A stretch of 39,625 bases of DNA from an uncultured Defluviitaleaceae bacterium (GCA_964449985.1 CAYVCG010000008.1:7805-47429), one strand, 5' to 3'; numbered from the stretch's first letter, positions 1,111 through 21,962 are shown. The notes: generated by a model from the letters alone, not told the origin. Program-made: numbers and translations.

Positions 1111-1118
1111 ACACGTAT

Positions 1119-4499: not shown

Positions 4500-4506
4500 T
4501 AACCAA

Positions 4507-5316: not shown

Positions 5317-5340
5317 AACATCACCCCCCCACAGCATAGC

Positions 5341-6252: not shown

Positions 6253-6272
6253 AAAAATCCCCTCCCCGTAGA

Positions 6273-6312
6273 GAAAAAAACCGCTTTCGCATAATTATAT
6301 GCAAAAAGCGGT
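6273..6312 (-). terminator. Strong rho-independent terminator closing the multi-Hsp70 operon
   Basis: 8-bp outer stem accgcttt/aaagcggt (6280-6287 / 6305-6312) plus a 5-bp inner stem gcata/tatgc. On the minus strand it is followed by a 7-T run (6273-6279), immediately after the TPR gene stop (6315). Confidence 0.8.
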
Positions 6313-6314
6313 TG

Positions 6315-7487
6315 TTAAATCTCATTTTCTCGATATTTTTCCTTAAAGCGTCCTAAAACGTCTTTAAGTATAACCTGATATTCCTTTATCCTACCCATGG
6401 ATTTTTTTATTCTTGCATTTTCTAAACCCGCCTTCTCATTGGATGGCGATAGATCAAGCGCTTTGATTATTGCGCTGTTTGCCCGTGTCAAATCATAATC
6501 CATACGATAATACCTAGCAAGCCTTGTCCAGAGATCAACGCTGTTTTTATCCTGCATAAGTGCTTTTTCTATACAGCGTATTGCCGCAGGGATATTGTTG
6601 TAAGCAACATACACTTCTGCCTGTTTTTTAAGCAAATACTTGTCCTTGCAAGCGATTTTATCCAGTGTTTCAAGAGCCTTGTCATAAAATCTAAGCTTTA
6701 GATATACGTCGCAAAGCCTATACATATATTCCCATCTCTGAGTACTTGTCTCGGCAGCTTCAACAGCTCTTTCAAAATATGATATTGCTTCAAAATATCG
6801 CCCCGAGGAAAACACTAACTCACCATACATATAATAAACATCGCCTGCTTCTCCGTAATGCAGTTTTATCGTTTCGATTATTTTGTTAACACTGTCAAAA
6901 TCCTTATTAAGCAAATGCGCCTCAGCAATATGCAGCAAAAGCTTGTAGTCATGCGGCATCATGCCAAGCGCACGATTCAAGTATTCGATTGCTTCGCTAT
7001 AGCGCTCCATCTTTAGAAGCGTTATGGCAATGTTGTTAAGAAGTTGGGGATTTTCGCCATGTTCCAAGGCTTTTTTGTAATAGCTGTATGCTTTTTCCTC
7101 ATCGCCGTTATTGATGAGGTAGTCTCCGCGTTCCTTTAGTTTTTCCCATTCCTTGCGGTTTTCCCAAAGAGCTATTTCCTTGCGCAAATTCTCTATCTGT
7201 TCATTTGAAAAATAATCTATTAACGACAGAAATTGCGAAAGTTTACGGCTAAGGCTGGGAAAACCGCTTAAATCCTTAATCTTTGCTGCGATAAAGGAAA
7301 GCTTAAGCGCCCGGCTCACCCAGTCTATAAATTCGTCACACATAAAGTCGTCCACCGATTGCTTCCAATAATGGTAGCAATGATAAACAGCCTCTTCAAA
7401 CGAATATACGTTTACATTTGTCATCTTAAATCTATACGGCTTTGAAACCATATCCTGCGACATGCAGAGCAACATATTGGAAGCCAT
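6315..7487 (-). CDS. Tetratricopeptide-repeat (TPR) protein, last gene of the multi-Hsp70 operon
   Basis: Repeated 34-aa TPR-like units (GDEEKAYSYYKKALE, ERYSEAIEYLNRAL, GRYFEAISYFERAVE, RFYDKALETLDKI, NNIPAAIRCIEKAL, YDLTRANSAIIKALDLSP). The start is 42 nt downstream of the Hsp70-vWA stop. Confidence 0.85.
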   Translation of the reverse strand: MASNMLLCMSQDMVSKPYRFKMTNVNVYSFEEAVYHCYHYWKQSVDDFMCDEFIDWVSRALKLSFIAAKIKDLSGFPSLSRKLSQFLSLIDYFSNEQIENLRKEIALWENRKEWEKLKERGDYLINNGDEEKAYSYYKKALEHGENPQLLNNIAITLLKMERYSEAIEYLNRALGMMPHDYKLLLHIAEAHLLNKDFDSVNKIIETIKLHYGEAGDVYYMYGELVFSSGRYFEAISYFERAVEAAETSTQRWEYMYRLCDVYLKLRFYDKALETLDKIACKDKYLLKKQAEVYVAYNNIPAAIRCIEKALMQDKNSVDLWTRLARYYRMDYDLTRANSAIIKALDLSPSNEKAGLENARIKKSMGRIKEYQVILKDVLGRFKEKYRENEI

Positions 7488-7529
7488 TTAAACACCAACC
7501 CGAAAAAGCAGATGAAATCATAACCCCTT

Positions 7530-9608
7530 TTACAGCCTTATAAGCTCGGCTATGCTCATCGCTATATTGTCCAAAATATCATAGAACTTATCATTTAAAT
7601 CATAATATTTGCCGCTAGGCTTTGTCAACGGGTCATAAGCTTCTATGCTTTCTCTATCTTTTCTGGCCACAACGTATGTGGTGACGTTATTATCCATAAG
7701 CATATCACAAATATCTGCAACGTGCCTTCCGCTGTTTGTCGGAACATGAGGCGGCGCATCAGTTATTAGGATAAACATATTTTTCGTATCCGGCTCTGCG
7801 CCTTTGGAACGAAGCAAATCCACGCCGGTTTCCAGCGCATCCAAGGATGATTCCGGTATATCTCCTCCGTATGTCCTTGGTATATTTTTAACCTGCTTCT
7901 GGAACTTTTCTATGTCATCGGTAAAGTTATAAACGCTCGGCTTTTCCTTTTCGTTTAAATCTCCAAAGCCGATAAGCCCCAGCTTATAACCTGCTCCCTT
8001 GGAGTTTAGTATGTTGGAAAACTCTATCGCCCTGTCTTTAACGCCGTTTATATACGTATCCATACTGCCAGTTGTGTCTATAAGGAATACGATATTTACT
8101 TTGCCGCCCATTACTTTCATTTCTTCCCTCGGCGGCGGAGCAGATGTCTTTGTTCTGTCAAACTCTGCCCTTTCAGTTCTGCCTGTTTCCAAATCCTTAA
8201 CATAAACCTCAAACAGATTGTTTTCGTCTATAGCATAAGTTATCTCCAACTGAGTTGTGCCTTTAAGCCCTGTAAACGTTACGCTTCCGATATATTTTCT
8301 TTCAGCTTCATGGCCATCTTCCCATTGATAAACGTCTACGCTGACCATCGTAGCGCCAGACATACTGGCAAAGTTTGCATCGGAAAAGCTGCTGGGGATT
8401 GGGCTGCCCATCGGTATAATTGGTATAAGCCCGCGCTCCATCGTAGAGATATTAGTAACCGCTTCCGTTCCGAATATTTGGCGCGTTATCTGCCCTACCT
8501 TAACGTTGCTGTTTGGCAAATGTATCAAATAATTGTATATAGCGGCGCCCATGGCAACGCTTTTTGCAGGGTCTGTCGCACGGTACGGCTCTTTTAATAA
8601 TCCTGCCACCATACGTTTTACCATAGGTATAAGCGTTGAACCGCCAACAAGAATTACCTTTGAGATTTCATCAGCATCCTTGCCGGAGCGTTTTAACGCC
8701 TCCTCGACTATATCACGGCTTCTATCCACATACTTGCGGATCATCGCTTCAAATTCTTCTCGGGTTATCTCAAGAGATAAATTTTTCGGAACACCTTCAT
8801 GGATAATAAGCGGATGTATACGAACGGCTACTTTATTCGTGCCGGATAACTTTTTCTTTGTTTGTTCCGCTTCCTGCTTTAGCTTTTGGATGACGCGTTT
8901 CCGTTCGGAATTCTCAAGCGAATCCAAATCAATGTCATGCTGGGCTTTAAACTGCTCCTTCATCCATTTTATCAGCTCCGAATCAAAATCGTCGCCGCCA
9001 AGGCTCATATCGCCCACGTCGGACAATTCCTGAAAAATCTCCTGATCGTTTTCATCTTTAGAAACCTTTAAAACGCAAGCATCAAACGTTCCACCGCCAA
9101 GGTCATAAACCAAAAGCGTCTGGGCATAGCTCTGTTTAAAGCCGTATTCAATCGCTGCCGCCAAAGGCTCTGATAACAAATAAACCGTTTTAAAGCCGGC
9201 CATAAGCCCCGCTTGCTTTGTTGCAAAAATCTGCCTATCGTTAAAATATGCAGGATGGGTTATAACAACCTCGTCGAAAGTCTCCCCAGCTTGTTCCTCT
9301 GCCGCGGTTTTAAGCCGCTTTAAAATCTCAGAGCTTATTTCCTCAGGTGTTTTCTCCAGCTCACCTATGTTTATTTTTTCGCTGGAGCCCATAAAACGTT
9401 TGATAGAAATAACCGTGGTTTCCGGGTATATGATAGCGCCGGATTTCGCTTCGTTGCCCACAATAACGCCATCATTCGTATAGCTGACAACGCTGGGCAG
9501 AATTTCATCTGTCCCGTCAATTTTAACAACCTCCAGGCTGTCCTTTTTATCGTTATAAATAATCGCTACTGAGTTTGTTGTTCCCAGGTCTATGCCTAAG
9601 TAAGCCAA
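7530..9608 (-). CDS. Hsp70 (NBD plus beta-sandwich SBD) fused to a C-terminal von Willebrand factor A domain
   Basis: Hsp70 motifs GIDLGTTNS, LLVYDLGGGTFDACVL and ILVGGSTLIPMV. SBD-beta strand TQLEITYAIDENNLFEVYVKD. Then comes a short PPP linker and a vWA domain with MIDAS-type NIVFLIDTTGSMD (DTTGS at 8064-8078) and FILITDAPPH. I prefer the TTG start at 9608 (GGGGAGGG SD 5 nt upstream); the track start at 9722 would overlap the upstream gene by 77 nt. Confidence 0.88.
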   Translation of the reverse strand: MAYLGIDLGTTNSVAIIYNDKKDSLEVVKIDGTDEILPSVVSYTNDGVIVGNEAKSGAIIYPETTVISIKRFMGSSEKINIGELEKTPEEISSEILKRLKTAAEEQAGETFDEVVITHPAYFNDRQIFATKQAGLMAGFKTVYLLSEPLAAAIEYGFKQSYAQTLLVYDLGGGTFDACVLKVSKDENDQEIFQELSDVGDMSLGGDDFDSELIKWMKEQFKAQHDIDLDSLENSERKRVIQKLKQEAEQTKKKLSGTNKVAVRIHPLIIHEGVPKNLSLEITREEFEAMIRKYVDRSRDIVEEALKRSGKDADEISKVILVGGSTLIPMVKRMVAGLLKEPYRATDPAKSVAMGAAIYNYLIHLPNSNVKVGQITRQIFGTEAVTNISTMERGLIPIIPMGSPIPSSFSDANFASMSGATMVSVDVYQWEDGHEAERKYIGSVTFTGLKGTTQLEITYAIDENNLFEVYVKDLETGRTERAEFDRTKTSAPPPREEMKVMGGKVNIVFLIDTTGSMDTYINGVKDRAIEFSNILNSKGAGYKLGLIGFGDLNEKEKPSVYNFTDDIEKFQKQVKNIPRTYGGDIPESSLDALETGVDLLRSKGAEPDTKNMFILITDAPPHVPTNSGRHVADICDMLMDNNVTTYVVARKDRESIEAYDPLTKPSGKYYDLNDKFYDILDNIAMSIAELIRL

Positions 9609-9645
9609 AACGCCCTCCCCTTTCGTGTATGTGATTAACCAAAAT

Positions 9646-11283
9646 CTATGATATAATCGTCTTTTTAAACCTATCCGGCGCAAAGTTTTGTTTAAACCCG
9701 CTCGGTGCAATTTCCTCGACAAAGCCCAAATCCTCTACCATGCCTTTAACCAGACCGCCGTCTTCTTCCGCCATAAGCGTTATTTTAAGCTTAGTCTTTC
9801 CGCTTGGTCGCTCTGGCAAGCCCTTTATCTCAACATCGCCGATAAGCTTGCAGTTTTCAAAGCTGTCTTCTTTATCAATGCGCTCTAAAATTCTTAAATC
9901 AAACTCCGTCATATCGCTTGGCTTGTCTCCAGACAATGTAAATATAGAGTTTTTCTTAGCCAAAGCATAGGGTGTGCCACGCCTTATCATCGTGAAAAAT
10001 GATTTCCTTACTCCATTAGTAACTTCTAAGCCAATATCATGCGGAACAGTTACCTCAAATTCAACGGACATTTTTTCCGTTTCCATTTCCGGCTGGGATA
10101 AAAGCCCCATTTTCATAGCGGCGTAATACGTAGCACCGAGGGATATATCCAACGCCGGGCGTTCCGACGTATAAATCTTAGTTTCGTCATTGAATATGCC
10201 GATAAGCATATCCTTCACCCACGGCATTTGTGATGAACCGCCCTCCAAAAGCACCCTGTCTATATTATCAGGTATGAGCGCGCCTGTATACGTTTCCCGC
10301 AAGGCTTTTAATACAAGCTTTCTCGTCTTTTCTATAAAATCACCGATAAGCTCCTCAAACTGGTCTCTAGTTATGTTTTCAACAAAAGGCGGGATGCAAA
10401 ACGTAAACGGGATACGGAAGCTTTTAACCCCGGATAGTCGCTCCTTTGCTTCTCTGGCACGCAAGGCAAGCTCTATTTGGTTTTCTATTGATATGTCTTC
10501 ACGTTCCTGCCCTGTTTTGTTTTTTATGAACTCAAAGCATTTGTTCATCAAAACGTCATCTATATTATCGCCGCCATGATAAGCTTCTCCGCCCTCGCTT
10601 ATTACTTGCAGTTTAACATGTTTATCGGTTTTTTCTAACACATGGAATATCGTTATATCCAGCGTTCCGCCGCCGAAATCAAACACCATGATTTTTTCGC
10701 CATCACTTAGCTGATGCCGGAAGTTATAAGCCAAAGCAGCAGCCTTTGGTTCTTCTATAAGGCAAATGAGATTATCCGAAAGCCCGGCTATTTCACAAGC
10801 CCGCATCGTGGCTTTTTTCGCCGCATCATCAAAGTCATACGGCACGGAAACCACAAGCCCGGCTATCTCCGCTTTTGGGTTTAGCCCTTGGCAATGCTCC
10901 ACAAGCTCACAAAGTATCTTTGCCGAAATATCCTCAGGCAAATATGCCTTGCCGTCTATTATTATCGTTTCATTCGTTCCCATTTTGCGCTTAATAGAGC
11001 GCACAGTTGTTTCCGGATAAATCTTAATGGAACGGTATGCTTCTTCACCGATAACCCATTCGCCGCCGGATGGTTCGTCCTCATCTTTTCTGTATTGAAC
11101 AACAGAAGGCAAGGGCACCTTTCCAAAGCCGTTGCTTATATCTATCGGCTCGCATCTTTTGCCCGTATTGTCCCAATAGCTGATTATGGAGTTGGTCGTG
11201 CCTAGGTCTATGCCAAGGATATACCACTCTTCCGGCAGGGAACCTTTTTCTTCAATACTCCGTTTATATTCCTCCCAATTCAT
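9646..11283 (-). CDS. Hsp70-family ATPase, lidless paralogue
   Basis: GIDLGTTNSIISYW, IMVFDFGGGTLDITIF, LLEGGSSQMPWV. C-terminal SBD-beta (GLPERPSGKTKLKITLMAEEDGGLVKGMVEDLG) with no helical lid. 545 aa. Confidence 0.9.
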   Translation of the reverse strand: MNWEEYKRSIEEKGSLPEEWYILGIDLGTTNSIISYWDNTGKRCEPIDISNGFGKVPLPSVVQYRKDEDEPSGGEWVIGEEAYRSIKIYPETTVRSIKRKMGTNETIIIDGKAYLPEDISAKILCELVEHCQGLNPKAEIAGLVVSVPYDFDDAAKKATMRACEIAGLSDNLICLIEEPKAAALAYNFRHQLSDGEKIMVFDFGGGTLDITIFHVLEKTDKHVKLQVISEGGEAYHGGDNIDDVLMNKCFEFIKNKTGQEREDISIENQIELALRAREAKERLSGVKSFRIPFTFCIPPFVENITRDQFEELIGDFIEKTRKLVLKALRETYTGALIPDNIDRVLLEGGSSQMPWVKDMLIGIFNDETKIYTSERPALDISLGATYYAAMKMGLLSQPEMETEKMSVEFEVTVPHDIGLEVTNGVRKSFFTMIRRGTPYALAKKNSIFTLSGDKPSDMTEFDLRILERIDKEDSFENCKLIGDVEIKGLPERPSGKTKLKITLMAEEDGGLVKGMVEDLGFVEEIAPSGFKQNFAPDRFKKTIIS

Positions 11284-11306
11284 TTACCTTCACCTCAAAC
11301 TATATA

Positions 11307-12884
11307 TCAAACAATGGACTCAGTATCAAACACAAACTCACGCTCATAATCCGATGATGGGAACAACTCCCCAAAGCCTAAATCCCGCACCTTCGCCTTT
11401 ATAACATTACTACCGGAAAATCCGATGGATATGGAAAGCCTCGTTACCCCGGCAGGCCTATCCGGCAAACCATCCAACGCTAGGCTCTTAATCGGCGTCA
11501 TTGTGCCGGATTTATCCCTTTTAAACATTTGTATATGAGCCGCAGGGCTTGTTGGCTCTGTAAGTATAAACTGCTTCGGGGGATGAGTTTGCCACCAAAA
11601 TGTACTACTCTCAACAATCGGGGTAAAACGCTCCCTGTTGTCCCGCAGTATTTTAAATCCAATGTCATAATCAATCCTGTTTTTATCCTTTATCAAGAAC
11701 TTTTTGCCGGAAAACGCACAAAGCTCCGTTGCAGCGGCAACGCTTGCACCCTCGGCTGTAACACCTTTTGGATTTTTATAAATTGCTATTTCCGATTCAG
11801 GGAATGCTTCTGAAACAACCTCTCTGGCCCATAACATCTCGAAACCGCCTCCGACGCAAATAACAGACGATATATCTTTAATATCGATACGTTTGCCATC
11901 AGATGTTTTGCGAGCCTCCATCAAAAAAGCCTCAACGCATTCCTTTAATGGACCGACAATCTCTTGCGCCATATCATGCGAAATACTTGCCTGAAACGGG
12001 GGATAAGCAAAATTGTAATAAATTTTAAGCGGCTTCGACTTTATATCCTTTCTAAACAACAAATCCTTATGCTGATACGAAAATATTTCAAGCTGTTCCC
12101 TTTGCCGCTGATCAAGCCGCTCTGGCGGTATATTAAAATGCCCGCAGTATATGTTCTGAAACATTTGAGAAACAACTTCATCAACAATATCTGTTCCTAG
12201 CGATTTATCAAACAAAAATGAACGACAGTCCACACTGACATTTCCATCATCTTCGGGGCAAATATCATAAACACCAGCCCTTAATTCTCTTGCGCCAAAA
12301 TCTATTATCATTACTGTTTCTTTTTTTATAGCTCTATCAAAATAAAACCTGTTTAAAACACATTCCCTATCATCCAAAAAACCGAGCAACGGCTTTTCAT
12401 AACCTGCACTCTTTAAAACCGCCGAAAGCTCGGCTTCGGCCTCCTTGCCCAAATAAGCAGGAACACTAACAGCAATCCCTGCTATCTCTGCCTTAGGATT
12501 TATATTTTTGCAGTTTCCGACGAGCTCTTTTATATACAAGCCCAAAATGGATGTAACACTAACAGGCTTTCCGGAAACATCAACATACTCACCCAACCCC
12601 AGCTTTTGAACCAACGACAGAATCGTTATATCTTTGCTCCCAGAGCGATTGGCCATGGCATATTCCCCAAAAACCCATTCCTTAGTATCCGCAACATATT
12701 GCATAACCGTTGGAACAGAAGGCTTTCCATAGCCGCCGGATATATCAATAATCTCAGGGGCGCTTTGATTAAGATCAAAATAAGCGATAGCAGACGTTGC
12801 GCTTCCGATATCAAGGCCAAGGATAAAATAATTCTCTTGCCTTATGCCGTTTTTAAACAGCTCCGTAAACTTTCGCCTGCTCAT
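11307..12884 (-). CDS. Hsp70-like protein with degenerate nucleotide-binding motifs (predicted pseudo-ATPase)
   Basis: Same overall layout, including SBD-beta (GLPDRPAGVTRLSISIGFSGSNVIKAKVRDLG). Phosphate-1 reads GLDIGSATSA instead of DLGTTNS. Phosphate-2 reads IIDFGARELRAGVY instead of DxGGGTxD. The adenosine motif reads CVGGGFEMLW. Confidence 0.8.
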   Translation of the reverse strand: MSRRKFTELFKNGIRQENYFILGLDIGSATSAIAYFDLNQSAPEIIDISGGYGKPSVPTVMQYVADTKEWVFGEYAMANRSGSKDITILSLVQKLGLGEYVDVSGKPVSVTSILGLYIKELVGNCKNINPKAEIAGIAVSVPAYLGKEAEAELSAVLKSAGYEKPLLGFLDDRECVLNRFYFDRAIKKETVMIIDFGARELRAGVYDICPEDDGNVSVDCRSFLFDKSLGTDIVDEVVSQMFQNIYCGHFNIPPERLDQRQREQLEIFSYQHKDLLFRKDIKSKPLKIYYNFAYPPFQASISHDMAQEIVGPLKECVEAFLMEARKTSDGKRIDIKDISSVICVGGGFEMLWAREVVSEAFPESEIAIYKNPKGVTAEGASVAAATELCAFSGKKFLIKDKNRIDYDIGFKILRDNRERFTPIVESSTFWWQTHPPKQFILTEPTSPAAHIQMFKRDKSGTMTPIKSLALDGLPDRPAGVTRLSISIGFSGSNVIKAKVRDLGFGELFPSSDYEREFVFDTESIV

Positions 12885-12910: not shown

Positions 12911-14848
12911 CTATCTTGCAGCGATAACATTTGCTCTTATCAAAACCCTTTCGCCGCTTTTATAACCCCGGTTCATAAGCTTTATAATCTCGCCTTTTTT
13001 ATAATCTTCGTTTTTCTCCGCCATAAGCACCTCATGTTCCTTTGCATTAAACATATCATGGGCCACAGGCGCTATTGGCGTTATGCCGTTTATTTTCAAT
13101 ATATTGTCAAGCTCTGCCGCCTTATTATAAATAAAATCAGCAAAACCCGATACATTTTCGTCTTCGCTCGCTTTTAACAGCGAAACCGAATAATTCATAA
13201 TCTCTTCAAAAGTGGACATTTCAAATAAAACGTAATCTTTTACAAAACCGTCAGTCTTTTTGACCACTTCGTCGATCTTTCTTTCATATGCCTTTTTCTG
13301 CTTTTCCTTATGCTCCAAAGCCAAATCACAGTTTTCTATATCAGCAAGCATACGTCGAATAACAAATGAACCGCGCCTATCATCTCTTGAAAGTGCAGCA
13401 AGCCGCAAAACAAGCTCTCCCATGCATTGACTAGCCTGGTTTTTTATCTCGCTCTTTTGCGTATCACTTATGGCCAATTCATCATTTTCCTTAGAATAGC
13501 TGACATGGGCATACGCATCAGACTCTGCCTTAAATTCGTTTTTGTTTTCATCAATGCTTTGGATCTTTATAGCAACCGTCTCTGCCACACCCGTTATTAT
13601 CTCAGCTTTTTCGCTGGATGTAAGCGCTTTATTAATATCCTCTTCGTTATAATAATCTAATATGGATTTAAACACGCCGTTCATCTCATCAGCCATAACA
13701 ATGGCATGAGAAAACACCTTTTTTATTTCATAATATTGTTTTATCGAATTATTTTTCTTTACAATCCGCTCCAACGTGTTTATTATCTCTTTTTCCATAT
13801 GCTTGCAAAAATCATCCATACGGCCTTCCAGAGAAAGCGCAAACCCTTCAAATACAGAAATCTTTATAAAAGAAACACCACTGGTATGAGAAAGAAGGCT
13901 TTCCGAAAACTGCTCGCGGCTTTGAGCAAGGCTTGTCTGCCCTTCATCCGCCTTGCTTTCCCGCGCGGCCTTTAGCCTTGATATTATATCAGCAGTTTCT
14001 TTGCCATATCGCTGATAAGCTTCTCTAAGAAGATACAGCATCTGTCTTATAATCGAAACTGTGCTTTCATTCTCGATTCCGTTTTCCAAATAGCTTTCCA
14101 AAACCCCTGCCTGAACCTTTATTATTGCACCCAATATCTGGTATTCTTCGTTTAGCATAGTGATATAATGATCAACGGACTTTCTTTTCTCAAGGTCATT
14201 TATATCTGTCACGGCTCTTTCGGTTGTATTGCAATAAATAGCATAAAATTCCTCAAAGCAATTCTTTTCTATGCATGAACCCATAAGATTAATAAGCTCT
14301 ATACCGTTGCTCAAATCAACAGACTGCAAAAACAAACGCCTCGCATGATACACAACGTCTTTTTGCTTTTCCATCTTAAATTTATAACAGACGGAATCAA
14401 AGGCCTTGTCAAAAGATTTTAAAGCCTTGGCTATAATCTCTCTTTTTTCAATGGAAACCGGATTTGAGCCATCCGCTTGTGGGCGCTCTTCAAAAGCTTT
14501 TAGGCGTGATACGATTATAGAATAAAGCCCGTCATAAATATTCTTTATTTGTATATCAGAAAACTCCAATGGATTTTCCTCATAAACACTTACAGCGGAT
14601 GCATAACAGCCCATAAGCTTACAATAATAATCATAAATACTTTCGTCATAAGCGCTTAGCTTTGAATCAGACATGGATGCCGAATATATTTTATCGCTAA
14701 TAACCTTTTTAATAAGGCGCAATAACTCGTCAAGGCTATCCGCCGCATAATCATCAATAAATGCGGCGGCGGCGTTCCATTTTTTTAATATTAAATTTTC
14801 AGCACTACCGGCATTCCTTGCCCTAACGGACGACTTTGCCATTTCCAC
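12911..14848 (-). CDS. Large helical protein with a C-terminal GrpE-like nucleotide-exchange domain
   Basis: The last ~110 aa (about 12914-13250) match the GrpE four-helix/beta-domain pattern: INGITPIAPV.HDMFNAKEHEVLMAEKNEDYKKGEIIKLMNRGYKSGERVLIRANVIAAR (compare GrpE G.e.i...G..FDP..HEAv...e.....v..v...GY....rvlRpA.V.V). The preceding ~530 aa have no counterpart in ~190-aa housekeeping GrpE. The start is GTG 14848 or ATG 14842. Confidence 0.75.
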   Translation of the reverse strand: MEMAKSSVRARNAGSAENLILKKWNAAAAFIDDYAADSLDELLRLIKKVISDKIYSASMSDSKLSAYDESIYDYYCKLMGCYASAVSVYEENPLEFSDIQIKNIYDGLYSIIVSRLKAFEERPQADGSNPVSIEKREIIAKALKSFDKAFDSVCYKFKMEKQKDVVYHARRLFLQSVDLSNGIELINLMGSCIEKNCFEEFYAIYCNTTERAVTDINDLEKRKSVDHYITMLNEEYQILGAIIKVQAGVLESYLENGIENESTVSIIRQMLYLLREAYQRYGKETADIISRLKAARESKADEGQTSLAQSREQFSESLLSHTSGVSFIKISVFEGFALSLEGRMDDFCKHMEKEIINTLERIVKKNNSIKQYYEIKKVFSHAIVMADEMNGVFKSILDYYNEEDINKALTSSEKAEIITGVAETVAIKIQSIDENKNEFKAESDAYAHVSYSKENDELAISDTQKSEIKNQASQCMGELVLRLAALSRDDRRGSFVIRRMLADIENCDLALEHKEKQKKAYERKIDEVVKKTDGFVKDYVLFEMSTFEEIMNYSVSLLKASEDENVSGFADFIYNKAAELDNILKINGITPIAPVAHDMFNAKEHEVLMAEKNEDYKKGEIIKLMNRGYKSGERVLIRANVIAAR

Positions 14849-14909: not shown

Positions 14910-16589
14910 TTATGAATACAGTTCATCAACGGAAAGCTCCGTTGTTACGCCGTCAAGGCTTGTGCTCTTTGCCATAACTTTAAGCATATTGTCTTGGCTA
15001 ATATGAAAAACAATCTTGACCTTTTCCTGACCCTTAGGCCCTTGCGGGATGCCGCGCAAAGATGTACCAGCAAGGCGTTTCATTCCCTCTTGGTTTACGA
15101 ACTCTGTCTTGCCGTCTAGCGCTGGTATCGCGTTTTCATAAACAACTATAGCCATGCTCGTTACATTATCAAAATTAGTCGTCAAAAGCTCATCTGCTTC
15201 AATCGTAAGGCCATCCTTAGGGATATCCAATCCCTGAGACACTATCTTCATGAACCGTCTTCCTGCGATTTCTAGCCCAAGCGGATGGATCGTCTTTTCA
15301 TGGACAACCGGCCCTTTAACAGTCGGCATCATTATCATATTACAATAATACGCCGCTCCTTGGGATATGCTAAGCGCAGGGCTTATCTTAGATTTAAACG
15401 GCTCTTTGCCAAACTTTTCGGATATTCTTTCGCCAACTGAGTTTATAGACGAACTGCCTCCAACAAGGAATATCTCGTCAACCTCGTCTGCCTTTATATT
15501 GGCAGCCTGCAAACAGTTGTCAATACATGAAAGGGTAATTTCGATAATATCGTTTAATGTTTTGCCGTTAAATTTATCAAAAATCTCCGGCTTATCACCA
15601 AGCTGGTTTACGCGGGCATGATTCATAAAATCTTCCCTTGTTATTTCCATATTTATGTTTATAATCTTTGGCTCTTGAATAAACGGAGCAAGCGTTACCT
15701 TCGTGCTCTTAGCCTGAGAAAGGCGTTCTTTTGCCTGATTTGCCACCTGCTGCAAACGCACCAAAGCGACCTTCTTTTGGCGTTTAGAAACACCGTCATC
15801 AACATCTTCATTAAAAAGGTCTATCTCATTATTAGTGAGCTTTTTAAACTCCTCATAAATCATATCCATAATGATTTTGTCTATATCATTACCGCCAAGG
15901 TCATTATCGCCATATGTGCTTAATATGGAGATACTCGGTTCATTAGCTTCGTCCGCCTTTATTTGGAGAATGCAAGCATCAAATGTTCCGCCGCCGAAGT
16001 CATAAACCAAAACCTTTTTGTCGCTTGTCTCGTTTATCGCATAGCTTATTGCGGCAGCTGCCGGCTCTAGCCTCAAATATATATTTTCTTCATCAAAACC
16101 GGCCAAAAGAGCAGCCTGCTTTGTCATTTGCTTTTGCTTGTCCGTAGAGTTTGCAGGAACGGTTATAACACAGCCGGAAAATTCTCCGGAAATATTAAGC
16201 TCCTCTTGAGCATATTCATCAGCCTTTTGCTTTAAATAACCCAAAATCTCGCCGGCAATCTGCTCCGGCGTAAAAACATGCTCTGCCTCGTCCACAACAA
16301 CAGTTATCTTTTCATCAGATCCGAGAAGTCTTTTTATAGACAAAACGGTGCTTTGGGGGTAAATAATGGCAGCTTCTTTAGCCTGAACTCCAAATATTCT
16401 GGAAAGCTTCTTTTCATCCTCCGGATCGGTTTCAAACTGGATAGCCGTTGGGAAGATGTTGCTACCGTCGATGGGTATGGTTTGCGCCTCACCGTCTTTA
16501 AAATTATAAATGCTGACGACAGAGTTTGTCGTTCCAAAATCAATACCGAGATACAGGCCTCTTTCCAAATCAAGCCCTAGCGTTCCCAT
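14910..16589 (-). CDS. Hsp70-family ATPase, lidless paralogue
   Basis: GIDFGTTNSVVSIY, VLVYDFGGGTFDACIL, FLVGGSSSINSV. SBD-beta (HPLGLEI..., GIPQGPKGQEKVKIVFHISQDNMLKVMAKS). The protein ends 20 aa after the last beta strand. AAGGAGGG SD. Confidence 0.9.
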   Translation of the reverse strand: MGTLGLDLERGLYLGIDFGTTNSVVSIYNFKDGEAQTIPIDGSNIFPTAIQFETDPEDEKKLSRIFGVQAKEAAIIYPQSTVLSIKRLLGSDEKITVVVDEAEHVFTPEQIAGEILGYLKQKADEYAQEELNISGEFSGCVITVPANSTDKQKQMTKQAALLAGFDEENIYLRLEPAAAAISYAINETSDKKVLVYDFGGGTFDACILQIKADEANEPSISILSTYGDNDLGGNDIDKIIMDMIYEEFKKLTNNEIDLFNEDVDDGVSKRQKKVALVRLQQVANQAKERLSQAKSTKVTLAPFIQEPKIININMEITREDFMNHARVNQLGDKPEIFDKFNGKTLNDIIEITLSCIDNCLQAANIKADEVDEIFLVGGSSSINSVGERISEKFGKEPFKSKISPALSISQGAAYYCNMIMMPTVKGPVVHEKTIHPLGLEIAGRRFMKIVSQGLDIPKDGLTIEADELLTTNFDNVTSMAIVVYENAIPALDGKTEFVNQEGMKRLAGTSLRGIPQGPKGQEKVKIVFHISQDNMLKVMAKSTSLDGVTTELSVDELYS

Positions 16590-16622: not shown

Positions 16623-19319
16623 CTATAAAATCCAGCTCTTAATACGCGGCTTTTCCCTAAGCTTTTCTGTAATTATGCCCTCAACCATATCATATTTAAA
16701 CAGGCGTTCATAAATAAGGGCGTTGTTAATAACAAAAAAAGAATCATCTTTTATTTCAGACAGTTTCATATCAGAATTCTCAACAACACTTTGCTTGGAA
16801 ACGATGCTGCCCGTTTCCATTTCTTCACTGAAATAATACGTTATTTTTTCACCGTAAAAATGCGTCACATGGGCAAAATACAGCCCAAACCTTAAATAAC
16901 GCATCCTTTTGCTCCGAAACTCGGGCTCGTTGTCTGTTTTGTAATAAAGCTTTATTATTTTATCAGGAAAACCATGGTATATAAAAGGCTGATTCTTTTC
17001 TATATACGCACTTGTGAATTTTTTGTCTTTTATATGTTTTAATACCGGGAAAATAAAGGCGTCGTCTTCGCATAGCTTCACAGCTTGTTTTATAATCTCA
17101 TCAGACTTAAACGTTGTTATGCCATACCGTGCATATACATGGCAAAGAGCGTATGCAATAAAGCTATCTCCGCTTCCAAAGAACATCCTTTCCATAATTT
17201 CAATCGTTTCATATTCCGGCTTTATATTGTTTATTATTATTTCATAAACGCAAAAAGCAACAAATTCCTCAACAAGCGTATTTTTCGAGTTCATCTCAAA
17301 CATACGTTGGAACACCTTTTGAGAACCTTTATCCATCTGGTGCATAACTATTGCATTTTTAAGAATTATTTCGTCAAGCCCTTGCTCTGCGATAGACATA
17401 TGCGACAGCGCACGGCTTAGCTCTTGCCATTCTTCCTGGCTTCCACGATAGTGGGAAAATATGATTTCCACAAGCGTTTTGTCATACCAGCTTTTTAAGA
17501 CAAGCTCATATGCAACGTTTGCAATGTCTCTATCATAAATATTCTTCACAGCGATTTGTTTAAGCGCATAGAATAGATTTCTGTCAGATATACATTCGGC
17601 TTTTTTAACTATAAGGCTGACAGCTTTTTTATAATCATTCGCATTTATATAAGCTATAAGCATTTGCTCTATATAATTATCATTAAGTTTATTTTCATCA
17701 ACATCCTTATAATACGAAACGGCTTTTGAATAAGCTCCTAAAGATGCATAATAATTCCCTGTTGCTGCACTAATGAGCATCTTAAATGATGCAGACAAGT
17801 CCGCCCTTGCCACAGCAAGCTTAAAAACCCCAATGCTCTCCTCCGGCAAAACCTCCAGCGACATATAGTGCTTTGAAAGCGCGACTATAAGCTCTGGGCT
17901 TGTCATGCCTTTCCCAAAAAAACGTTTATATAGCTCGATATCTGCATTCTCCACAAGCCTCACAGCTGTATACGGCGTTTCTACCAAAGACCTCTGGTCA
18001 GAATCCAAAAACCAACAGGAAAAGCTGGGGCCAGAAGCAATTATAACCTTCGACTTGCCGGTAATGGCATATTTATTCATGTCCCTCCGCTCCGGCTCAG
18101 ACACCCAAATATACTTTGCACTGTCGTTTTCAATAAGAACCCTGAATTTAAACAAATCCTCCCACAAAATCTTTTCTGCCAAGTCCATAAGGCTTTTATC
18201 AGAAGCAGTAACAGCTTCTGATAGATAAAACCTGTAAATACTGTTATAATACCTGCCTGATTCACCCTTTTTTAAGCTTTCAACCGCAAAATCAATAATC
18301 CTGTCTTTATATGCATCAAGCAATTCAAAATTCTTTGGCTTTGTTATTACAAGATGATACGCAAACGGAAGCAGCATAGCCTCCAAATATCCGGTTTTAA
18401 AAAACATATCCAGTGTATAACGGCTTATGTTTTCAACATTGTTATTTGCGGCGGATTTTATAAGCATGTTATAAATATTCGGCAGTTCAATCTGTTTTAG
18501 CTCTGCTTCTTTATAAAAATAAAATGCCGATGACGAATAATCCATCCGCTCCATAAGAGCAGAACAAATACTAGCCAAAACCTCATCATGAGGATACAGC
18601 CTATAAACCTCTTCCACAAGCTTTGGATAAACATTAAAATAAGCCGCCATTGCATATTTAAATTTAAAAACAGCTTCAGAAATATCAAGCTTTTTATTAA
18701 GCGCCCATCTCACGAACCCAAAAAACATCCCGTCATCCACTTTAGAAACGTCTACCGGGGCGTTATTAAAACAATCAAGAAGATATGCAAACATCATTGC
18801 GCTTCGTTCGCCTTTTGCATAAGCCTTCGCAAACAGTAATACAGCTCCGTTATAATCACCATATTCATAAGCTGATACCGCCATAAGCATATCAAACAAT
18901 CCGTTATGGGTATTATCACGAAAATCATTCATGGTTTTCTGCTGTTTCTCAAAAGCGCGGATTTTACCAAGGCGTATGTTATAAAACCCATTAAGAAACG
19001 TATACAGCATAAACCTCTGTGGTTCGTTATTTTTAAAATAGTTTTTGCTGCCTTTTAGAAGATCAAGCAACTGCTTTGCATTATCGAAATTTTCCATCTC
19101 TATGCTAAGAAAGACATCGATGAAATAATGATCAAAACATGCAAAATTTGTTTTGAACACAGAACGGTTTATATGATATCCCTTATAAAGATGGGCTTTA
19201 TCACCCTGAGCCTTATACAAAAGCCAACAGCGCATAGCGACGGCAATAGCGCTCTCGCTTGATTTGTCTATATTAAATTTTTGCTCTATATCATCCAATT
19301 TGTTTTGCAGAACATCCAT
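16623..19319 (-). CDS. 898-aa alpha-helical repeat (TPR-like) protein with a beta-rich C-terminal ~130 aa, function unknown
   Basis: Clean ORF with GGAGG SD. Recurrent TPR-like helices (GDYNGAVLLFAKAYAKGE, GAYSKAVSYYKDVDE, NDYKKAVSLIVKKAE). No enzymatic motif recognised. Sits 33 nt upstream of the first Hsp70. Confidence 0.7.
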   Translation of the reverse strand: MDVLQNKLDDIEQKFNIDKSSESAIAVAMRCWLLYKAQGDKAHLYKGYHINRSVFKTNFACFDHYFIDVFLSIEMENFDNAKQLLDLLKGSKNYFKNNEPQRFMLYTFLNGFYNIRLGKIRAFEKQQKTMNDFRDNTHNGLFDMLMAVSAYEYGDYNGAVLLFAKAYAKGERSAMMFAYLLDCFNNAPVDVSKVDDGMFFGFVRWALNKKLDISEAVFKFKYAMAAYFNVYPKLVEEVYRLYPHDEVLASICSALMERMDYSSSAFYFYKEAELKQIELPNIYNMLIKSAANNNVENISRYTLDMFFKTGYLEAMLLPFAYHLVITKPKNFELLDAYKDRIIDFAVESLKKGESGRYYNSIYRFYLSEAVTASDKSLMDLAEKILWEDLFKFRVLIENDSAKYIWVSEPERRDMNKYAITGKSKVIIASGPSFSCWFLDSDQRSLVETPYTAVRLVENADIELYKRFFGKGMTSPELIVALSKHYMSLEVLPEESIGVFKLAVARADLSASFKMLISAATGNYYASLGAYSKAVSYYKDVDENKLNDNYIEQMLIAYINANDYKKAVSLIVKKAECISDRNLFYALKQIAVKNIYDRDIANVAYELVLKSWYDKTLVEIIFSHYRGSQEEWQELSRALSHMSIAEQGLDEIILKNAIVMHQMDKGSQKVFQRMFEMNSKNTLVEEFVAFCVYEIIINNIKPEYETIEIMERMFFGSGDSFIAYALCHVYARYGITTFKSDEIIKQAVKLCEDDAFIFPVLKHIKDKKFTSAYIEKNQPFIYHGFPDKIIKLYYKTDNEPEFRSKRMRYLRFGLYFAHVTHFYGEKITYYFSEEMETGSIVSKQSVVENSDMKLSEIKDDSFFVINNALIYERLFKYDMVEGIITEKLREKPRIKSWIL

Positions 19320-19347: not shown

Positions 19348-20568
19348 TTACGCTTCAAAATATAAGCCTCCGATAAAAACTTTTAACACCTTTTTAAACG
19401 GCTTTTCATCAACATACGCTTTTACGGTTATAAATGTTTCTAAAACAGGCTGTTTTTTTAGCGCGAATTGCGCTGCCGCCAGCCCTGTTAGCCGGACAGA
19501 AAACGGTATCTCTGCATAACCACTCACCAAATACCGCTTTCCCTCAAACTTTATGAAAGTATCCTCCGCCAAAACCTCCAGCATCATATCTTTAAACGTA
19601 TTGTTAATAACGATTATTCTTCCCATGTCTTCAAAACCAAATGACTGGCGGGATAAAGACAAATCAAGCGGATTCTCTTTGCACACATTAACGAATATAT
19701 TCGTATTAGTGTTAACGAGCCTTAACGTTGCTGATGCAAATTTTTGCCGCAAAAGATTCGGATAAATAATATAGCTTGCTTCAAAAAAACCCGCCTCGTC
19801 AAAATCCGCTGCTGTTATACTATCAGTCATAAGCTTTATCCACGGAGTATCTTTCGAGTTTATAATTTCAATCCGCTCATCAAGATAGCCCCAGCCTTTA
19901 AGCCTGAGCGGTATAACGCCTGTTACGGCGTCTGTTTCTGCCGGCCTTATCCTTGTTGACAATCTGTTTTCAATGACGGATATTTCGGCCTTGTTTTTTA
20001 GGCCATTTAATACAAGAAAATTATCAATCGCCCGTTCTTTGTTCGGATCTCTGGCAAAATGCTCATACATATCCATATGCTCATAATTCATGCTTAACAG
20101 CCACATCAAAAATTCCTTCTGCGAAAACAGCTTCCGTGATTCTACAGGGCTTTTCTTTACATAAAGCAAAAAGTCTTTAAGGGTGCCCAACCGGCTTCCA
20201 TCTTTTGCTATAACGGCTGGTGGGATAATTTTTATTAAAACAGGGATTATTGCCTCTCCGCCGTTTGATGTTATTAATGCGCTTGTATGGATTGTATCGC
20301 CTTTTTTATAAATGTCCAAATTAAATCTATATGTTATTTTAATATTATTTCCACGAAATTCCGTCGGAGAAAATTCCAGCCCATGGGAGTTGGAGGTTAT
20401 TGTTCCAAAAAGCTCACCCCCGCCTATATTGGACACACAAAATCCACCCTCAAAGCACTCCGATGTCTCGATGGATATATTATCGGTATCGACTTGTATT
20501 ACAGGCAAAGGGTATTCAAATTGTTTTAGTATATCCGATTTTTTATTATCAACTTGTTTTATATCCAT
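19348..20568 (-). CDS. 406-aa protein of unknown function with an N-terminal Ig-like/beta-sandwich signature
   Basis: Clean ORF with AAGAAGG SD. The N-terminal segment FEGGFCVSNIGGGELFGTITSNSHGLEFSPTEFRGNNIKITYRF resembles PapD/ASH-type beta-sandwich modules. No signal peptide or TM segment seen. Confidence 0.65.
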   Translation of the reverse strand: MDIKQVDNKKSDILKQFEYPLPVIQVDTDNISIETSECFEGGFCVSNIGGGELFGTITSNSHGLEFSPTEFRGNNIKITYRFNLDIYKKGDTIHTSALITSNGGEAIIPVLIKIIPPAVIAKDGSRLGTLKDFLLYVKKSPVESRKLFSQKEFLMWLLSMNYEHMDMYEHFARDPNKERAIDNFLVLNGLKNKAEISVIENRLSTRIRPAETDAVTGVIPLRLKGWGYLDERIEIINSKDTPWIKLMTDSITAADFDEAGFFEASYIIYPNLLRQKFASATLRLVNTNTNIFVNVCKENPLDLSLSRQSFGFEDMGRIIVINNTFKDMMLEVLAEDTFIKFEGKRYLVSGYAEIPFSVRLTGLAAAQFALKKQPVLETFITVKAYVDEKPFKKVLKVFIGGLYFEA

Positions 20569-20612: not shown

Positions 20613-21962
20613 TTATCGACCAAGCATCTTGAAGTTCATATCCATTTGCTCTTTTATGCTCATTATTGCATTCATTTCAGACCTGCTTTGCTCTTGCATT
20701 TGGGCAAACACGCTTTGCAGCCGTTCGATAAGCTCTGAGTTGGATTTTATAATTGAATCAAGATTTTGGCGCAAAGATTCATTTATGCCATTATAAGCCT
20801 CTTGCACCTGAAAATCAATTATCCTGCCCATTCCTTCGCCAATCTGCGATGTTATTTCTTTCAATGTCAGCTCGTATTGCTGCAAACTGTTCTCTAAAGC
20901 AATTTGGTTCGTTTTTAAATATTTGAGCTGCTGCTCGACTTCATCGTTTCTTGCCATATAGTTCGAATTACTGGTATACAAGGCATCCGCCGTCTTCTCC
21001 AGGCTTGCTACCTGTTTTGAAAGAGATGAAAAATAATCACCCATGCTGCCAGACATCTTCGCAAACCCACCATCAACAATATTTGATAGCTTCTCAACGC
21101 CCTGAATGGATACGTTTAGCGAAGCAAGCGTCTTGTTAAAGTTATCCTGCCCTTTGACAGCTTCATTGATTGTATCGCGCCATTTTTTAATAGGCTCATC
21201 CAATATTTCTTTATGATTTAACACAGATGTCATAGCGTTTTCAACGTTTTCTGTCATTGCCGCCATGGATTTTCCCATCGCCTCTCCAAGCTCAGTGCCC
21301 AGCATACTTATGGTCTCTCTAAGGCCGGACGTTTGCGCCTGAATAGAATTCTTTATATCCACCCTAAGCAGATTAATAGCCGAAACAGGATCCTTACCAA
21401 AAAACTTGTTGATTTCTATTTCCATAAAGTTGGACATTTCGAAAACTATCTTGCTTTCAACAGCTGTATAATCCAAGAATAAGCCAACAACCTTTATGAC
21501 GACAAACAAAAATACGCAAATCGCAGCTACGGTAGCTTTTTCATTCACCGTTAGCGTTAAAATAATCCCTATTAGGAGTATGCTTTTTTCAAACGTGTCC
21601 AAAACACCTTTATAGCTTTTTAAGTTAAGCAAAAGAAAGCGCGATCTTCCCAACTGCCGCTCAACAACATCTCTGGGAGACAGATGAACAACACCTTTTT
21701 CCACAACGGAAACGTAAAACTTAACGACCTTGCTGAAAAACCCAAATTTTATATTTTCTAATTCCTTTTTTTCGTTAATCTCTTTAGACTGCAACAAATA
21801 TGTGGCATAAATATTCTGATAAGCGATGAATAACGCGATTCTAAAGATAAGAGCCAAAAGAGAAACGCCTATAAGGCATTGCAGCCCCATCTGAGCGCCA
21901 TAGTCATATATCCCTATTGATGTATAAAACTCTGTATAAAATACCGGTATTTGAAATGGCAT
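20613..21962 (-). CDS. 449-aa membrane-anchored coiled-coil protein, first gene of the operon
   Basis: About three hydrophobic helices (LQCLIGVSLLALIFRIALFIA; ILLIGIILTLTV; VAAICVFLFVVIKVVGLFL). These are followed by ~270 aa of heptad-like, Q/E/S/N-rich helical sequence. GGAGG SD 7 nt upstream of the ATG. Confidence 0.75.
   Translation of the reverse strand: MPFQIPVFYTEFYTSIGIYDYGAQMGLQCLIGVSLLALIFRIALFIAYQNIYATYLLQSKEINEKKELENIKFGFFSKVVKFYVSVVEKGVVHLSPRDVVERQLGRSRFLLLNLKSYKGVLDTFEKSILLIGIILTLTVNEKATVAAICVFLFVVIKVVGLFLDYTAVESKIVFEMSNFMEIEINKFFGKDPVSAINLLRVDIKNSIQAQTSGLRETISMLGTELGEAMGKSMAAMTENVENAMTSVLNHKEILDEPIKKWRDTINEAVKGQDNFNKTLASLNVSIQGVEKLSNIVDGGFAKMSGSMGDYFSSLSKQVASLEKTADALYTSNSNYMARNDEVEQQLKYLKTNQIALENSLQQYELTLKEITSQIGEGMGRIIDFQVQEAYNGINESLRQNLDSIIKSNSELIERLQSVFAQMQEQSRSEMNAIMSIKEQMDMNFKMLGR

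Follow-up and report, generated by a model that had tools for sequence, protein, structure and literature searches.

The 39,625-nucleotide stretch of DNA analysed here (the window; CAYVCG010000008.1:7805-47429 of assembly GCA_964449985.1, from an uncultured Defluviitaleaceae bacterium) carries on its minus strand a gene for an Hsp70 protein that ends in a von Willebrand factor A (vWA) domain, and this Hsp70-vWA fusion, together with the operon in which it is encoded, is the subject of the present text. The gene occupies positions 7530..9608 (minus) and encodes 692 amino acids (aa), from a TTG start at 9608-9606 to a TAA stop at 7532-7530, as part of an open reading frame (ORF) that runs uninterrupted over 7530..9722; the stop of the next upstream gene lies at 9646. 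Since the ribosome-binding site GGGGAGGG is found 6-7 nt before the TTG, and the codon preceding this TTG is GTT, which is no start codon, the product is taken to be 692 aa long. It begins with M-A-Y-L-G-I-D-L-G and is 100% identical to the database protein P0001 (692 aa). The coordinates 7530-9608 given in the initial annotation of this DNA, which had left out the strand, were right, and all the motifs quoted there can be located in the translation, namely DLGTTNS (residues 7-13), DLGGGTFD (169-176), VGGST (321-325), LEITY...RAEF (454-483), SAPPPREE (489-496), IVFLIDTTGSMD (506-517), GLIGFGD (544-550) and FILITDAPPH (612-621).

The N-terminal part of the protein is an Hsp70 core. It consists of an actin-like ATPase or nucleotide-binding domain (NBD; aa 1-360, 8529..9608, minus), delimited by the Pfam HSP70 profile and by alignment to DnaK, and of the interdomain linker and beta-sandwich of the substrate-binding domain (SBD-beta; aa 361-484, 8157..8528, minus), delimited by the DnaK alignment. 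The HSP70 profile (PF00012) is matched with an E-value of 1.8e-94, residues 5-490 covering profile positions 2-502 of 599. The phosphate-1 (DLGTTNS), phosphate-2 (DLGGGTFD) and adenosine (VGGST) motifs are intact and the equivalents of the catalytic K70 and E171 of DnaK are kept, while a phmmer comparison with PDB sequences aligns residues 4-481 end to end with the DnaK of Geobacillus (G. kaustophilus) and residues 85-482 with residues 109-500 of Escherichia coli DnaK. Identity to DnaK is 38-40% over residues 4-481, and the alignment stops at about DnaK residue 500, which is the end of SBD-beta. Both Pfam and the DnaK alignment thus bear out the canonical NBD and SBD-beta proposed earlier, as an intact ATPase core followed by the beta-sandwich; the first substrate loop (L1,2) has an insertion of ~6 residues compared with DnaK. 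Of the DnaK equivalog models of NCBIfam, TIGR02350 gives 347.9 bits (cut-off 822.55) and NF001413 gives 347.6 bits (cut-off 648), scores that fall far short. The protein is a member of the Hsp70 family, yet not a DnaK, HscA or HscC equivalog.

Positions 503-599 of the HSP70 profile remain unmatched, which means that the lid part of the family has no counterpart in Hsp70-vWA. Where the lid would start, there is a variable proline-rich linker (aa 485-503, RTKTSAPPPREEMKVMGGK; 8100..8156, minus), as the initial annotation had described it, leading to the C-terminal vWA domain. A full-length AlphaFold2 (AF2) model, computed from a 36-sequence alignment at 78-86% identity and with a predicted local distance difference test score (pLDDT) of 64.5, served solely for remarks on helices and strands: with low confidence, SBD-beta has eight strands at 378-484 and no helix lies between residue 484 and the vWA domain, and the linker at 485-503 has a pLDDT <50 and is without secondary structure. 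Mean identity among 46 orthologs is 79% in the NBD, 44% in the linker and 81% in the vWA domain, which is as strongly constrained as the NBD, up to the final residue of the protein.

The vWA domain itself (aa 504-692; 7533..8099, minus) is of an integrin-beta-I-like subtype and is recognised by several independent means. At the level of Pfam, it matches VWA_4 (E 1e-10, 41.9 bits, cutoff 27) and VWA (E 2.8e-9, 37.9 bits, cutoff 23.8, residues 506-657). A separate AF2 model of residues 501-692, based on 13 diverse sequences, reaches a pLDDT of 89.1 and a predicted TM-score (pTM) of 0.90, and shows a Rossmann-like fold with a central six-stranded sheet and the topology b1-a1-b2-b3-a2-a3-b4-a4-b5-a5-b6-a6. 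When this model is searched against the PDB with Foldseek, 343 matches are obtained at E<=1e-3, with a probability of 1.00 for many vWA and I domains; integrin beta I domains lead the list, with E 1.5e-11 and a TMq of 0.72-0.80, and make up nearly all of the top 50, the others being of the alpha-I and vWF-A3 kinds. Over these 50, E ranges from 1.5e-11 to 7e-9 and TMq is 0.62-0.80. A profile of the domain searched against PDB sequences likewise has integrins beta6, beta3 and beta8 as its first matches (E 4.5e-13 to 1e-10). The assignment to the vWA fold is far beyond chance, with Pfam, the PDB profile search, AF2 and Foldseek in agreement.

The initial annotation had further noted a motif of the metal ion-dependent adhesion site (MIDAS) type. 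Alignment to integrins completes this site, which follows the pattern D-x-T-x-S ... E ... D with D511, T513, S515, E586 and D617 and is therefore of the integrin-beta type, Glu586 standing in the place of the usual Thr. More specifically, the motif D511-T-T513-G-S515 (8064..8078, minus) aligns to D119/S121/S123 of integrin beta3; D550 in F-G-D550 (7959..7967, minus) corresponds by hhalign to beta3 D158, a residue of the synergistic metal-binding site (SyMBS); in the loop G581-G-D583-I-P585-E586-S (7848..7868, minus), E586 corresponds to beta3 E220 (shared by MIDAS and SyMBS) and D583 and P585 to D217 and P219 (SyMBS); and D617 in I-L-I-T-D617-A-P-P-H621 (7746..7772, minus) is equivalent to beta3 D251, the fifth MIDAS residue. 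The hhalign comparison (probability 96.9%, E 2e-10) was made with what we take to be the beta3 beta-I sequence, and its outcome is consistent with the PDB alignment, its equivalences agreeing with those of the HMMER alignment to beta6; with the same beta3 sequence, four of the five SyMBS positions are matched (D550, D583, P585 and E586), and N215 is replaced by G581. The Asp pair of the ADMIDAS (the site adjacent to the MIDAS; beta3 D126/D127) is not kept, as T518 and Y519 align there, and the ~30-residue specificity-determining loop that is inserted after beta2 in integrins is absent.

All the residues named for the two sites, i.e. D511, T513, S515, D550, D583, P585, E586 and D617, are 100% conserved in the 46 orthologs. 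In fusions that are only 30-40% identical, no exception is seen at D511, S515, G582, D583 and D617, and hardly any at T513, D550 and E586; in an alignment restricted to vWA domains (A3), D550 is invariant. The C-terminal helix, equivalent to the allosteric alpha7 of I domains, is kept to the last residue. On the grounds of these alignments, the predicted MIDAS and SyMBS would probably bind divalent metal ions.

The initial annotation had also named an assembly or sequencing error as a possible source of the fusion. The clusters retrieved by a first search for homologs, 120 in number and 78-100% identical, were drawn from NCBI, JGI, ENA and Logan assemblies; all of them are 688-696 aa long and have both Pfam domains. 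In a scan of genomes, 51 loci were found, chiefly in metagenome-assembled genomes (MAGs) of termite-gut Defluviitaleaceae and of Clostridiales, and 46 of these encode a full-length ortholog; identity of Hsp70-vWA among related loci is 75-86%, and a copy 79% identical to that of the window exists in the closed genome (OW711693.1) of the cultured Lachnospiraceae Anaeropeptidivorans aminofermentans. The family is abundant among Lachnospirales of the gut, which here comprise Defluviitaleaceae of termites, Epulopiscium-like MAGs and one cultured species of Lachnospiraceae, and databases list it under no other name than 'Hsp70 family protein'. In a library clustered at 50% identity, the family is represented by one full-length sequence (P0121), and at least 12 further representatives, divergent Hsp70-vWA families in other phyla, align through the vWA domain at 30-40% identity; among their sources are a Deinococcus MAG and Peribacillus kribbensis (the divergent counterparts as a whole are from Bacillaceae, this MAG and further lineages). 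Those that carry a name are annotated merely as 'Hsp70 family protein' or 'molecular chaperone DnaK', and the junction between Hsp70 and vWA lies at the same place in them. A homolog search with a diverse alignment (A2) returned mainly the window's own family and added nothing. The idea that a frameshift or misassembly has fused two genes, one for an Hsp70 and one for a vWA protein, thus deserves practically no credence. Nothing was found in its favour, the one related fact being that vWA genes of this subtype stand alone in other systems; the ORF is without interruption, the 688-696-aa architecture recurs in >120 independent 90%-identity clusters, in 46 of the 51 genome loci and in a complete isolate genome, and the divergent fusions have the identical junction. 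As a separate observation, protein P0133 (1549 aa) is matched in seven stretches, the best of which places query residues 491-668 (the vWA region) on residues 680-858, and it may represent a larger multi-domain Hsp70/vWA architecture.

Hsp70-vWA is the eighth gene of a nine-gene minus-strand operon with gaps of 23-61 nt, as had been implied before. The first gene (20613..21962, minus), preceded by a promoter-like site at 22034-22006 (minus), encodes a membrane-anchored coiled-coil protein of 449 aa, for which a hydropathy scan gives hydrophobic segments at about aa 22-50 and 137-170 beside a long coiled coil, and which has weak ZorA/MotA/ExbB-like and LmuB-like matches only. It is followed by two DUF5717 genes: a smaller protein of 406 aa (19348..20568, minus), with beta-sandwich, BACON-like repeats and a match to positions 12-287 of the Pfam DUF5717_N profile, and a large protein of 898 aa (16623..19319, minus), composed of helical repeats, with DUF5717_N (profile 354-850) and the DUF5717 C-terminal domain. 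Pfam describes DUF5717_N as one 875-position profile, which is here spread over the two ORFs (406 + 898 aa); since it is equally split in the closed A. aminofermentans genome (400 + 892 aa), this is not a frameshift.

The remaining genes of the operon are, for the most part, chaperone-related. Hsp70a (14910..16589, minus; 559 aa) is recognised by Pfam and NCBIfam as an Hsp70 paralog with intact ATPase motifs, and is followed by a GrpE-domain protein (12911..14848, minus; 645 aa), in which the GrpE domain occupies aa 511-642 (Pfam E 2.8e-13) behind a helical N-terminal region of ~500 aa that has just a weak PilZN match; its orthologs are 25-36% identical overall, and the conserved parts are the GrpE domain and a few short N-terminal motifs. 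Next comes a degenerate Hsp70-like paralog, the DUF5716 protein (11307..12884, minus; 525 aa; DUF5716_C E 2.6e-24, HSP70 E 6.6e-9), in which GLDIGSATS and IIDFGARE stand for the phosphate motifs, and then Hsp70b (9646..11283, minus; 545 aa), likewise assigned through Pfam and NCBIfam, which combines intact ATPase motifs with a C-terminal half of the DUF5716_C type. The last conserved gene of the operon, downstream of Hsp70-vWA, encodes a TPR-repeat protein (6315..7487, minus; 390 aa; Pfam TPR families).

The paralogs change how the vWA domain is to be seen. The lid of DnaK controls how long a client stays bound, and in the initial annotation the vWA domain was described as standing in place of it. 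This is correct as a position, but not as a replacement, because the three sister Hsp70 paralogs equally end after SBD-beta: Hsp70a and Hsp70b stop at the equivalents of DnaK residues ~499 and ~509, and the DUF5716 protein is also lidless. The paralogs thus lack the lid as a group, and the vWA domain has been added to one of these lidless proteins.

Nineteen orthologs keep the acidic C-terminus of Hsp70a, ...TELSVDELY(S) (14910-14936, minus). It is reminiscent of the EEVD tail by which eukaryotic Hsp70 is bound by TPR cochaperones, and a TPR gene closes the operon; equally, the tail could conceivably be a ligand of the MIDAS. That the TPR protein might hold the Hsp70a tail in a carboxylate clamp of the EEVD type was considered and can serve only as a lead, as the TPR residues seen are those of the generic TPR consensus.

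Searches for known systems in the cluster were largely negative. No Walker A motif occurs in the 14 proteins examined and no Pfam match to AAA+/MoxR in the cluster, and neither NCBIfam nor PADLOC assigns the cluster proteins to a specific family or defence system; in PADLOC-DB 2.0 there are weak partial matches only, to PDC-M61B (E 2.9e-10 to 3.9e-5) over the NBD and, in the coiled coil, to ZorA/LmuB. Elsewhere, the window is an ordinary piece of chromosome, with acc genes, fabZ, rubrerythrin, PcrA and an AddA-like helicase. Two features outside the operon may be recorded as such. A 349-aa protein (3227-4276, minus) combines an N-terminal zinc ribbon, a run of ~130 residues that are nearly all Q or P, and a membrane domain of the DUF2628 type that has three hydrophobic segments, and at 1119-3081 (minus), downstream of genes for an LD-carboxypeptidase and an SH3-NlpC/P60 hydrolase, there are two tandem genes for cyclophilin-type peptidyl-prolyl isomerases (PPIases), the second of which (383 aa) has an N-terminal extension of ~185 aa and a cyclophilin domain that is matched in two pieces. 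The PPIase, LD-carboxypeptidase and SH3-NlpC/P60 genes are not kept beside the Hsp70 cluster in other genomes.

Much of the operon is conserved in related genomes. The order from the large DUF5717 gene to the TPR gene (16623-19319 onward) is complete in ~20 related loci and in A. aminofermentans, and the small DUF5717_N gene lies upstream also in A. aminofermentans and in several loci for which enough upstream sequence is available (~400 + ~890 aa). An Hsp70b ortholog is located upstream of Hsp70-vWA in ~37 of 50 related loci, and a TPR ortholog downstream in 23 related loci and in A. aminofermentans; an ortholog of the coiled-coil gene was seen only in L047, the upstream flanks being short elsewhere, and the downstream peptidoglycan-hydrolase genes are not conserved in the related loci. 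Across loci, the ATPases of the operon are 64-84% identical, and the GrpE protein, DUF5716, DUF5717 and TPR proteins 25-50%. In A. aminofermentans the cluster is situated among the genes for RlmL, LeuRS and SMC. Six contigs of Defluviitaleaceae MAGs (L011, L012, L014, L026, L039 and L048) have either 2-7 kb of extra DNA between Hsp70b and Hsp70-vWA or no Hsp70b in the upstream flank, and no TPR gene was detected downstream in them, which indicates that the cluster is rearranged or interrupted in part of the family.

A metagenome scan with vWA patterns yielded 80 loci, mostly of the same termite-gut family; 14 of the 17 most divergent were analysed and were informative. Outside this family, in all six divergent Hsp70-vWA loci examined at least one further atypical Hsp70 adjoins the fusion, and three of the six have a GrpE gene. 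The most elaborate case is that of P. kribbensis (L052; AUMQ01000016.1, 1-21285), an array of five Hsp70s that starts with an Hsp70-PIN protein (781 aa, with a PIN_4 domain inserted or fused), continues with three Hsp70s interleaved with unknown genes, and ends with Hsp70-vWA; it is followed by genes for a toxin of the WHH/colicin-DNase kind and for SUKH immunity, and by those for three dynamin-like GTPases and a TPR protein of 821 aa. One metagenomic/MAG locus has the order Hsp70-vWA, Hsp70, GrpE, Hsp70; another has Hsp70-vWA, GrpE, Hsp70, beside genes for an NB-ARC STAND protein (an NB-ARC/TPR NTPase) and a CHAT protease; a further divergent locus has Hsp70-vWA, a small gene, Hsp70, an unknown gene and Hsp70; and the Deinococcus MAG has four consecutive Hsp70 genes.

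Two loci are of particular use for interpretation. In L058, Hsp70-vWA, GrpE and Hsp70 are followed by a 769-aa protein (14454-16763, plus) of DnaJ-DUF5717_N/BACON-like-PEGA architecture, with DnaJ at aa 186-250 (31.6 bits, cut-off 27.8), a beta-sandwich at aa 268-370, and PEGA; by this arrangement, the DUF5717 proteins of the window are tied to the J-protein position of related systems, and the DUF5717 family to J-protein-like roles. The vWA subtype also occurs without Hsp70 in the metagenome scan, behind zinc ribbons or other short N-termini, and in L136 (Ga0207070_1093, 3-11450) genes for an RHS-repeat protein, a GrpE (312 aa), an Hsp70 (612 aa), an unknown protein (606 aa) and a stand-alone vWA protein (404 aa) lie in this order, with a CarboxypepD_reg-vWA protein and zinc-ribbon/HEAT proteins as further genes. 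L136 is a fission counterpart of the Hsp70-vWA fusion, a Rosetta-stone case. The data support a constant core which consists of Hsp70-vWA (or Hsp70 plus vWA), extra lidless Hsp70s and often GrpE.

We propose that, within a dedicated Hsp70 machine of several paralogs, Hsp70-vWA is the subunit that acts as adaptor or anchor, its vWA domain serving as an autonomous, cation-dependent module that holds a postulated partner, a reading in which our belief and our doubt are about evenly balanced. The operon would supply three ATPase-competent lidless Hsp70s (Hsp70a, Hsp70b and Hsp70-vWA) and the degenerate DUF5716 protein, and in addition the GrpE-fusion exchange factor, the TPR protein, two DUF5717 proteins and the membrane-anchored coiled-coil protein. 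MIDAS sites of vWA domains bind acidic residues of protein ligands; the MIDAS and SyMBS-like site would bind, in dependence on divalent cations, one specific partner or client by an acidic side chain of the latter, and the ATP/ADP cycle of the Hsp70, reset by the GrpE protein of the operon, would remodel or assemble the protein so tethered. A tether through the MIDAS to a dedicated partner or client, as opposed to general folding, had been suggested in the initial annotation and stands as the leading hypothesis. The idea of such a functional tether is consistent with the dedicated operon, the 100% conservation of the metal sites and the separate GrpE, Hsp70 and vWA genes of L136. As for the ligand, the ...ELSVDELY tail of Hsp70a, the D-x-G-F-G/V-E tails of DUF5716 and Hsp70b, and the N-terminal domain of the TPR protein are candidates that can serve only as leads.

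Several observations weigh against this proposal. Neither a Pfam DnaJ match nor an HPD motif is found in any protein of the Hsp70 cluster, although a DnaJ may be encoded elsewhere in the genome. The interdomain linker DVLLLD of DnaK is changed to NVKVGQI in Hsp70-vWA, so that classical allostery between NBD and SBD may not operate. The full-length AF2 model is too poor for the relative placement of vWA and SBD. Several contigs of Defluviitaleaceae MAGs, for example L014, L026 and L039, are without Hsp70b within the 5-10 kb of upstream sequence examined, which means that Hsp70-vWA is not always physically linked to the cluster, and single-sequence phmmer searches of the divergent loci found no homologs of the GrpE fusion, DUF5717 or TPR proteins, the matches being of the Hsp70 type only; only the Hsp70/GrpE/vWA core is thus common to the window and to those loci.

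A different reading places Hsp70-vWA in a system of biological conflict, similar to anti-phage or abortive-infection systems, and this we consider unlikely. It draws on the surroundings of the divergent fusions, as the P. kribbensis locus has, besides Hsp70-PIN, a WHH/colicin-DNase toxin with SUKH immunity and three dynamin-like GTPases, and other divergent loci have an NB-ARC/TPR STAND NTPase with a CHAT protease, CHAT-TPR and TraG-like genes, or an RHS protein (L136); the fast divergence of the partners in the window family (25-50% identity), while the ATPases stay at 64-84%, points the same way. It also has a precedent in the literature, since HSP70 and GrpE together with a protein of FNIII repeats fused to DnaJ or TPR are described as one theme among conflict systems of the GAP1-N2 DO-GTPase type (Kaur et al. 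2020, PMC7159879). The likeness to these systems extends to the combination of HSP70, GrpE and a second atypical HSP70, and to a beta-sandwich-repeat protein with DnaJ or TPR-like repeats, the counterparts of which would be DUF5717 and the DnaJ-DUF5717_N-like-PEGA protein of L058. However, the absence of a Walker A motif means that there is no DO-GTPase in the cluster, and no GAP1 was recognised in it with profile libraries that hold no GAP1 profile; an HSP70-vWA fusion is not mentioned in PMC7159879, one supplement of which has no HSP70 entry. The cluster of the window lies among housekeeping genes (acc, fabZ, PcrA and AddA-like, or RlmL, LeuRS and SMC in A. aminofermentans), its synteny is kept across families of Lachnospirales with ATPases 64-84% identical, no recognisable nuclease, protease or pore effector is encoded, and the PADLOC matches are weak and of a generic actin-fold and coiled-coil kind.

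The vWA domain might instead act within its own chain, as a lid surrogate or regulator which docks on its own SBD-beta and either traps the client, an acidic residue of which the MIDAS would contact, or gates the cleft. Its place exactly at the lid position, after a 19-residue linker, would suit a part in setting client residence time, as known for the lid of DnaK, and so would the alpha7-equivalent helix kept to the last residue. We nevertheless regard such a role as decidedly improbable, for the three sister paralogs have neither a lid nor a substitute, the linker is poorly conserved (44%), and the full-length AF2 model has no confident interdomain contact. Moreover, the same vWA subtype is found separately beside Hsp70 and GrpE (L136) or on zinc-ribbon N-termini, and a domain that can stand alone or be fused otherwise argues for an autonomous binding module.

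There is, finally, only a slim chance that the vWA domain drives self-assembly, with head-to-tail contacts through the MIDAS that polymerise the actin-fold paralogs into a membrane-associated scaffold or filament of structural role. Four actin-fold paralogs and a membrane-anchored coiled-coil protein in one operon speak for it, and multimeric assemblies of conflict-system HSP70s have been a matter of speculation (Kaur et al., PMC7159879). Nucleotide-cycled client binding is instead indicated by the retention of SBD-beta and GrpE, no evidence of polymerisation interfaces was found, and the likeness to ParM, MreB and MamK is only that of the generic fold, with scores far below the family cut-offs.

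Held against known systems, the proposed adaptor Hsp70 combines features of several. It shares with canonical DnaK the catalytic motifs of the NBD, SBD-beta and the GrpE-domain exchange factor in its operon, but it has a vWA domain where DnaK has the helical lid and the C-terminal tail, it does not keep DVLLLD, it has the L1,2 insertion, there is no J-protein in the operon, and its scores fall far below the equivalog cut-offs of DnaK and HscA. Truncated or atypical DnaK paralogs of bacteria (HscC, YegD and 'DnaK derivatives') have been proposed to be dedicated cochaperones or specialised machines (PMC13580251), and Hsp70-vWA resembles the HscC/YegD type in being an extra DnaK-derived paralog with an altered C-terminus, beside a presumed canonical DnaK; HscC, however, has a shortened lid and YegD an NBD only, and none of these paralogs has been described with a vWA domain or in a four-paralog operon with a GrpE fusion. 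The integrin beta I domain provides the best structure and profile match, a MIDAS with Glu for the Thr of alpha-I, and the SyMBS equivalents D550, D583, P585 and E586. The domain discussed here differs in being bacterial and cytoplasmic, in being located C-terminal to an Hsp70 and not in a hybrid domain, and in having no specificity loop, no ADMIDAS Asp pair and no alpha-subunit partner.

A functional parallel may be found elsewhere, as ATPases of the MoxR family act with vWA adaptor proteins (PMC7159879; NorQD in PMC13036017). In pairs such as RavA-ViaA, CbbQ-CbbO, NorQ-NorD and CoxD-CoxE, and in the ternary systems of PMC7159879, an ATP-driven remodeller is likewise combined with a MIDAS-bearing vWA protein that is thought to hold the target, and TPR genes are often near; the ATPase of the window differs in being an Hsp70 of the actin fold that is fused to the vWA domain in one chain, and no MoxR gene is present. 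By this analogy, Hsp70-vWA would functionally resemble the chaperone-adaptor pairs of MoxR and vWA proteins, with Hsp70 in place of AAA+ and both functions in one chain. The system is neither a MoxR-vWA nor a DO-GTPase system. Several Hsp70 paralogs, including a degenerate one, and in some cases with truncated SBDs, also work as one machine in eukaryotes (Ssz1-Zuotin-Ssb of the ribosome-associated complex, RAC; Hsp110-Hsp70). The resemblance to these triads and heterodimers, taken from general knowledge, is one of multiple paralogs, with no orthology and no link to the ribosome. Full-text searches of the accessible literature found no description of an Hsp70-vWA fusion or of a DUF5716/DUF5717 Hsp70 cluster. 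Closest in subject are PMC13580251, where truncated DnaK paralogs are treated in a general way only, PMC7159879, where HSP70 with GrpE appears only inside conflict systems centred on GTPases, and PMC11090510, which deals with the Hsp70-like CnuD of CoCoNuT systems, an unrelated context.

Hsp70-vWA, GrpE and lidless Hsp70s may even represent a widespread and unrecognised class of machine, in which the client is captured by integrin-style, metal-ion-dependent adhesion, with a MIDAS and a second cation site, instead of lid closure, a generalisation that we put forward tentatively and with more doubt than confidence. In such a machine, the conserved alpha7-like helix might serve as an allosteric link from ligand binding to either the chaperone cycle or the TPR partner. 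The mechanism of Hsp70 is known almost wholly via the architecture of NBD, SBD-beta and lid and via targeting by J-proteins. A machine in which the lid is absent, the target is apparently chosen via an integrin-like MIDAS, and several paralogs are encoded together with a private exchange factor would show another route to Hsp70 specificity; if true, this would be a new principle of client capture for Hsp70 and an Hsp70-based counterpart of the MoxR-vWA systems. The fusion is of relevance to specialists of chaperones and of vWA and integrin evolution alike, because the vWA domain, as a compact bacterial relative of integrin beta I with a predicted MIDAS and SyMBS-like site, would also help to study how that domain has evolved.

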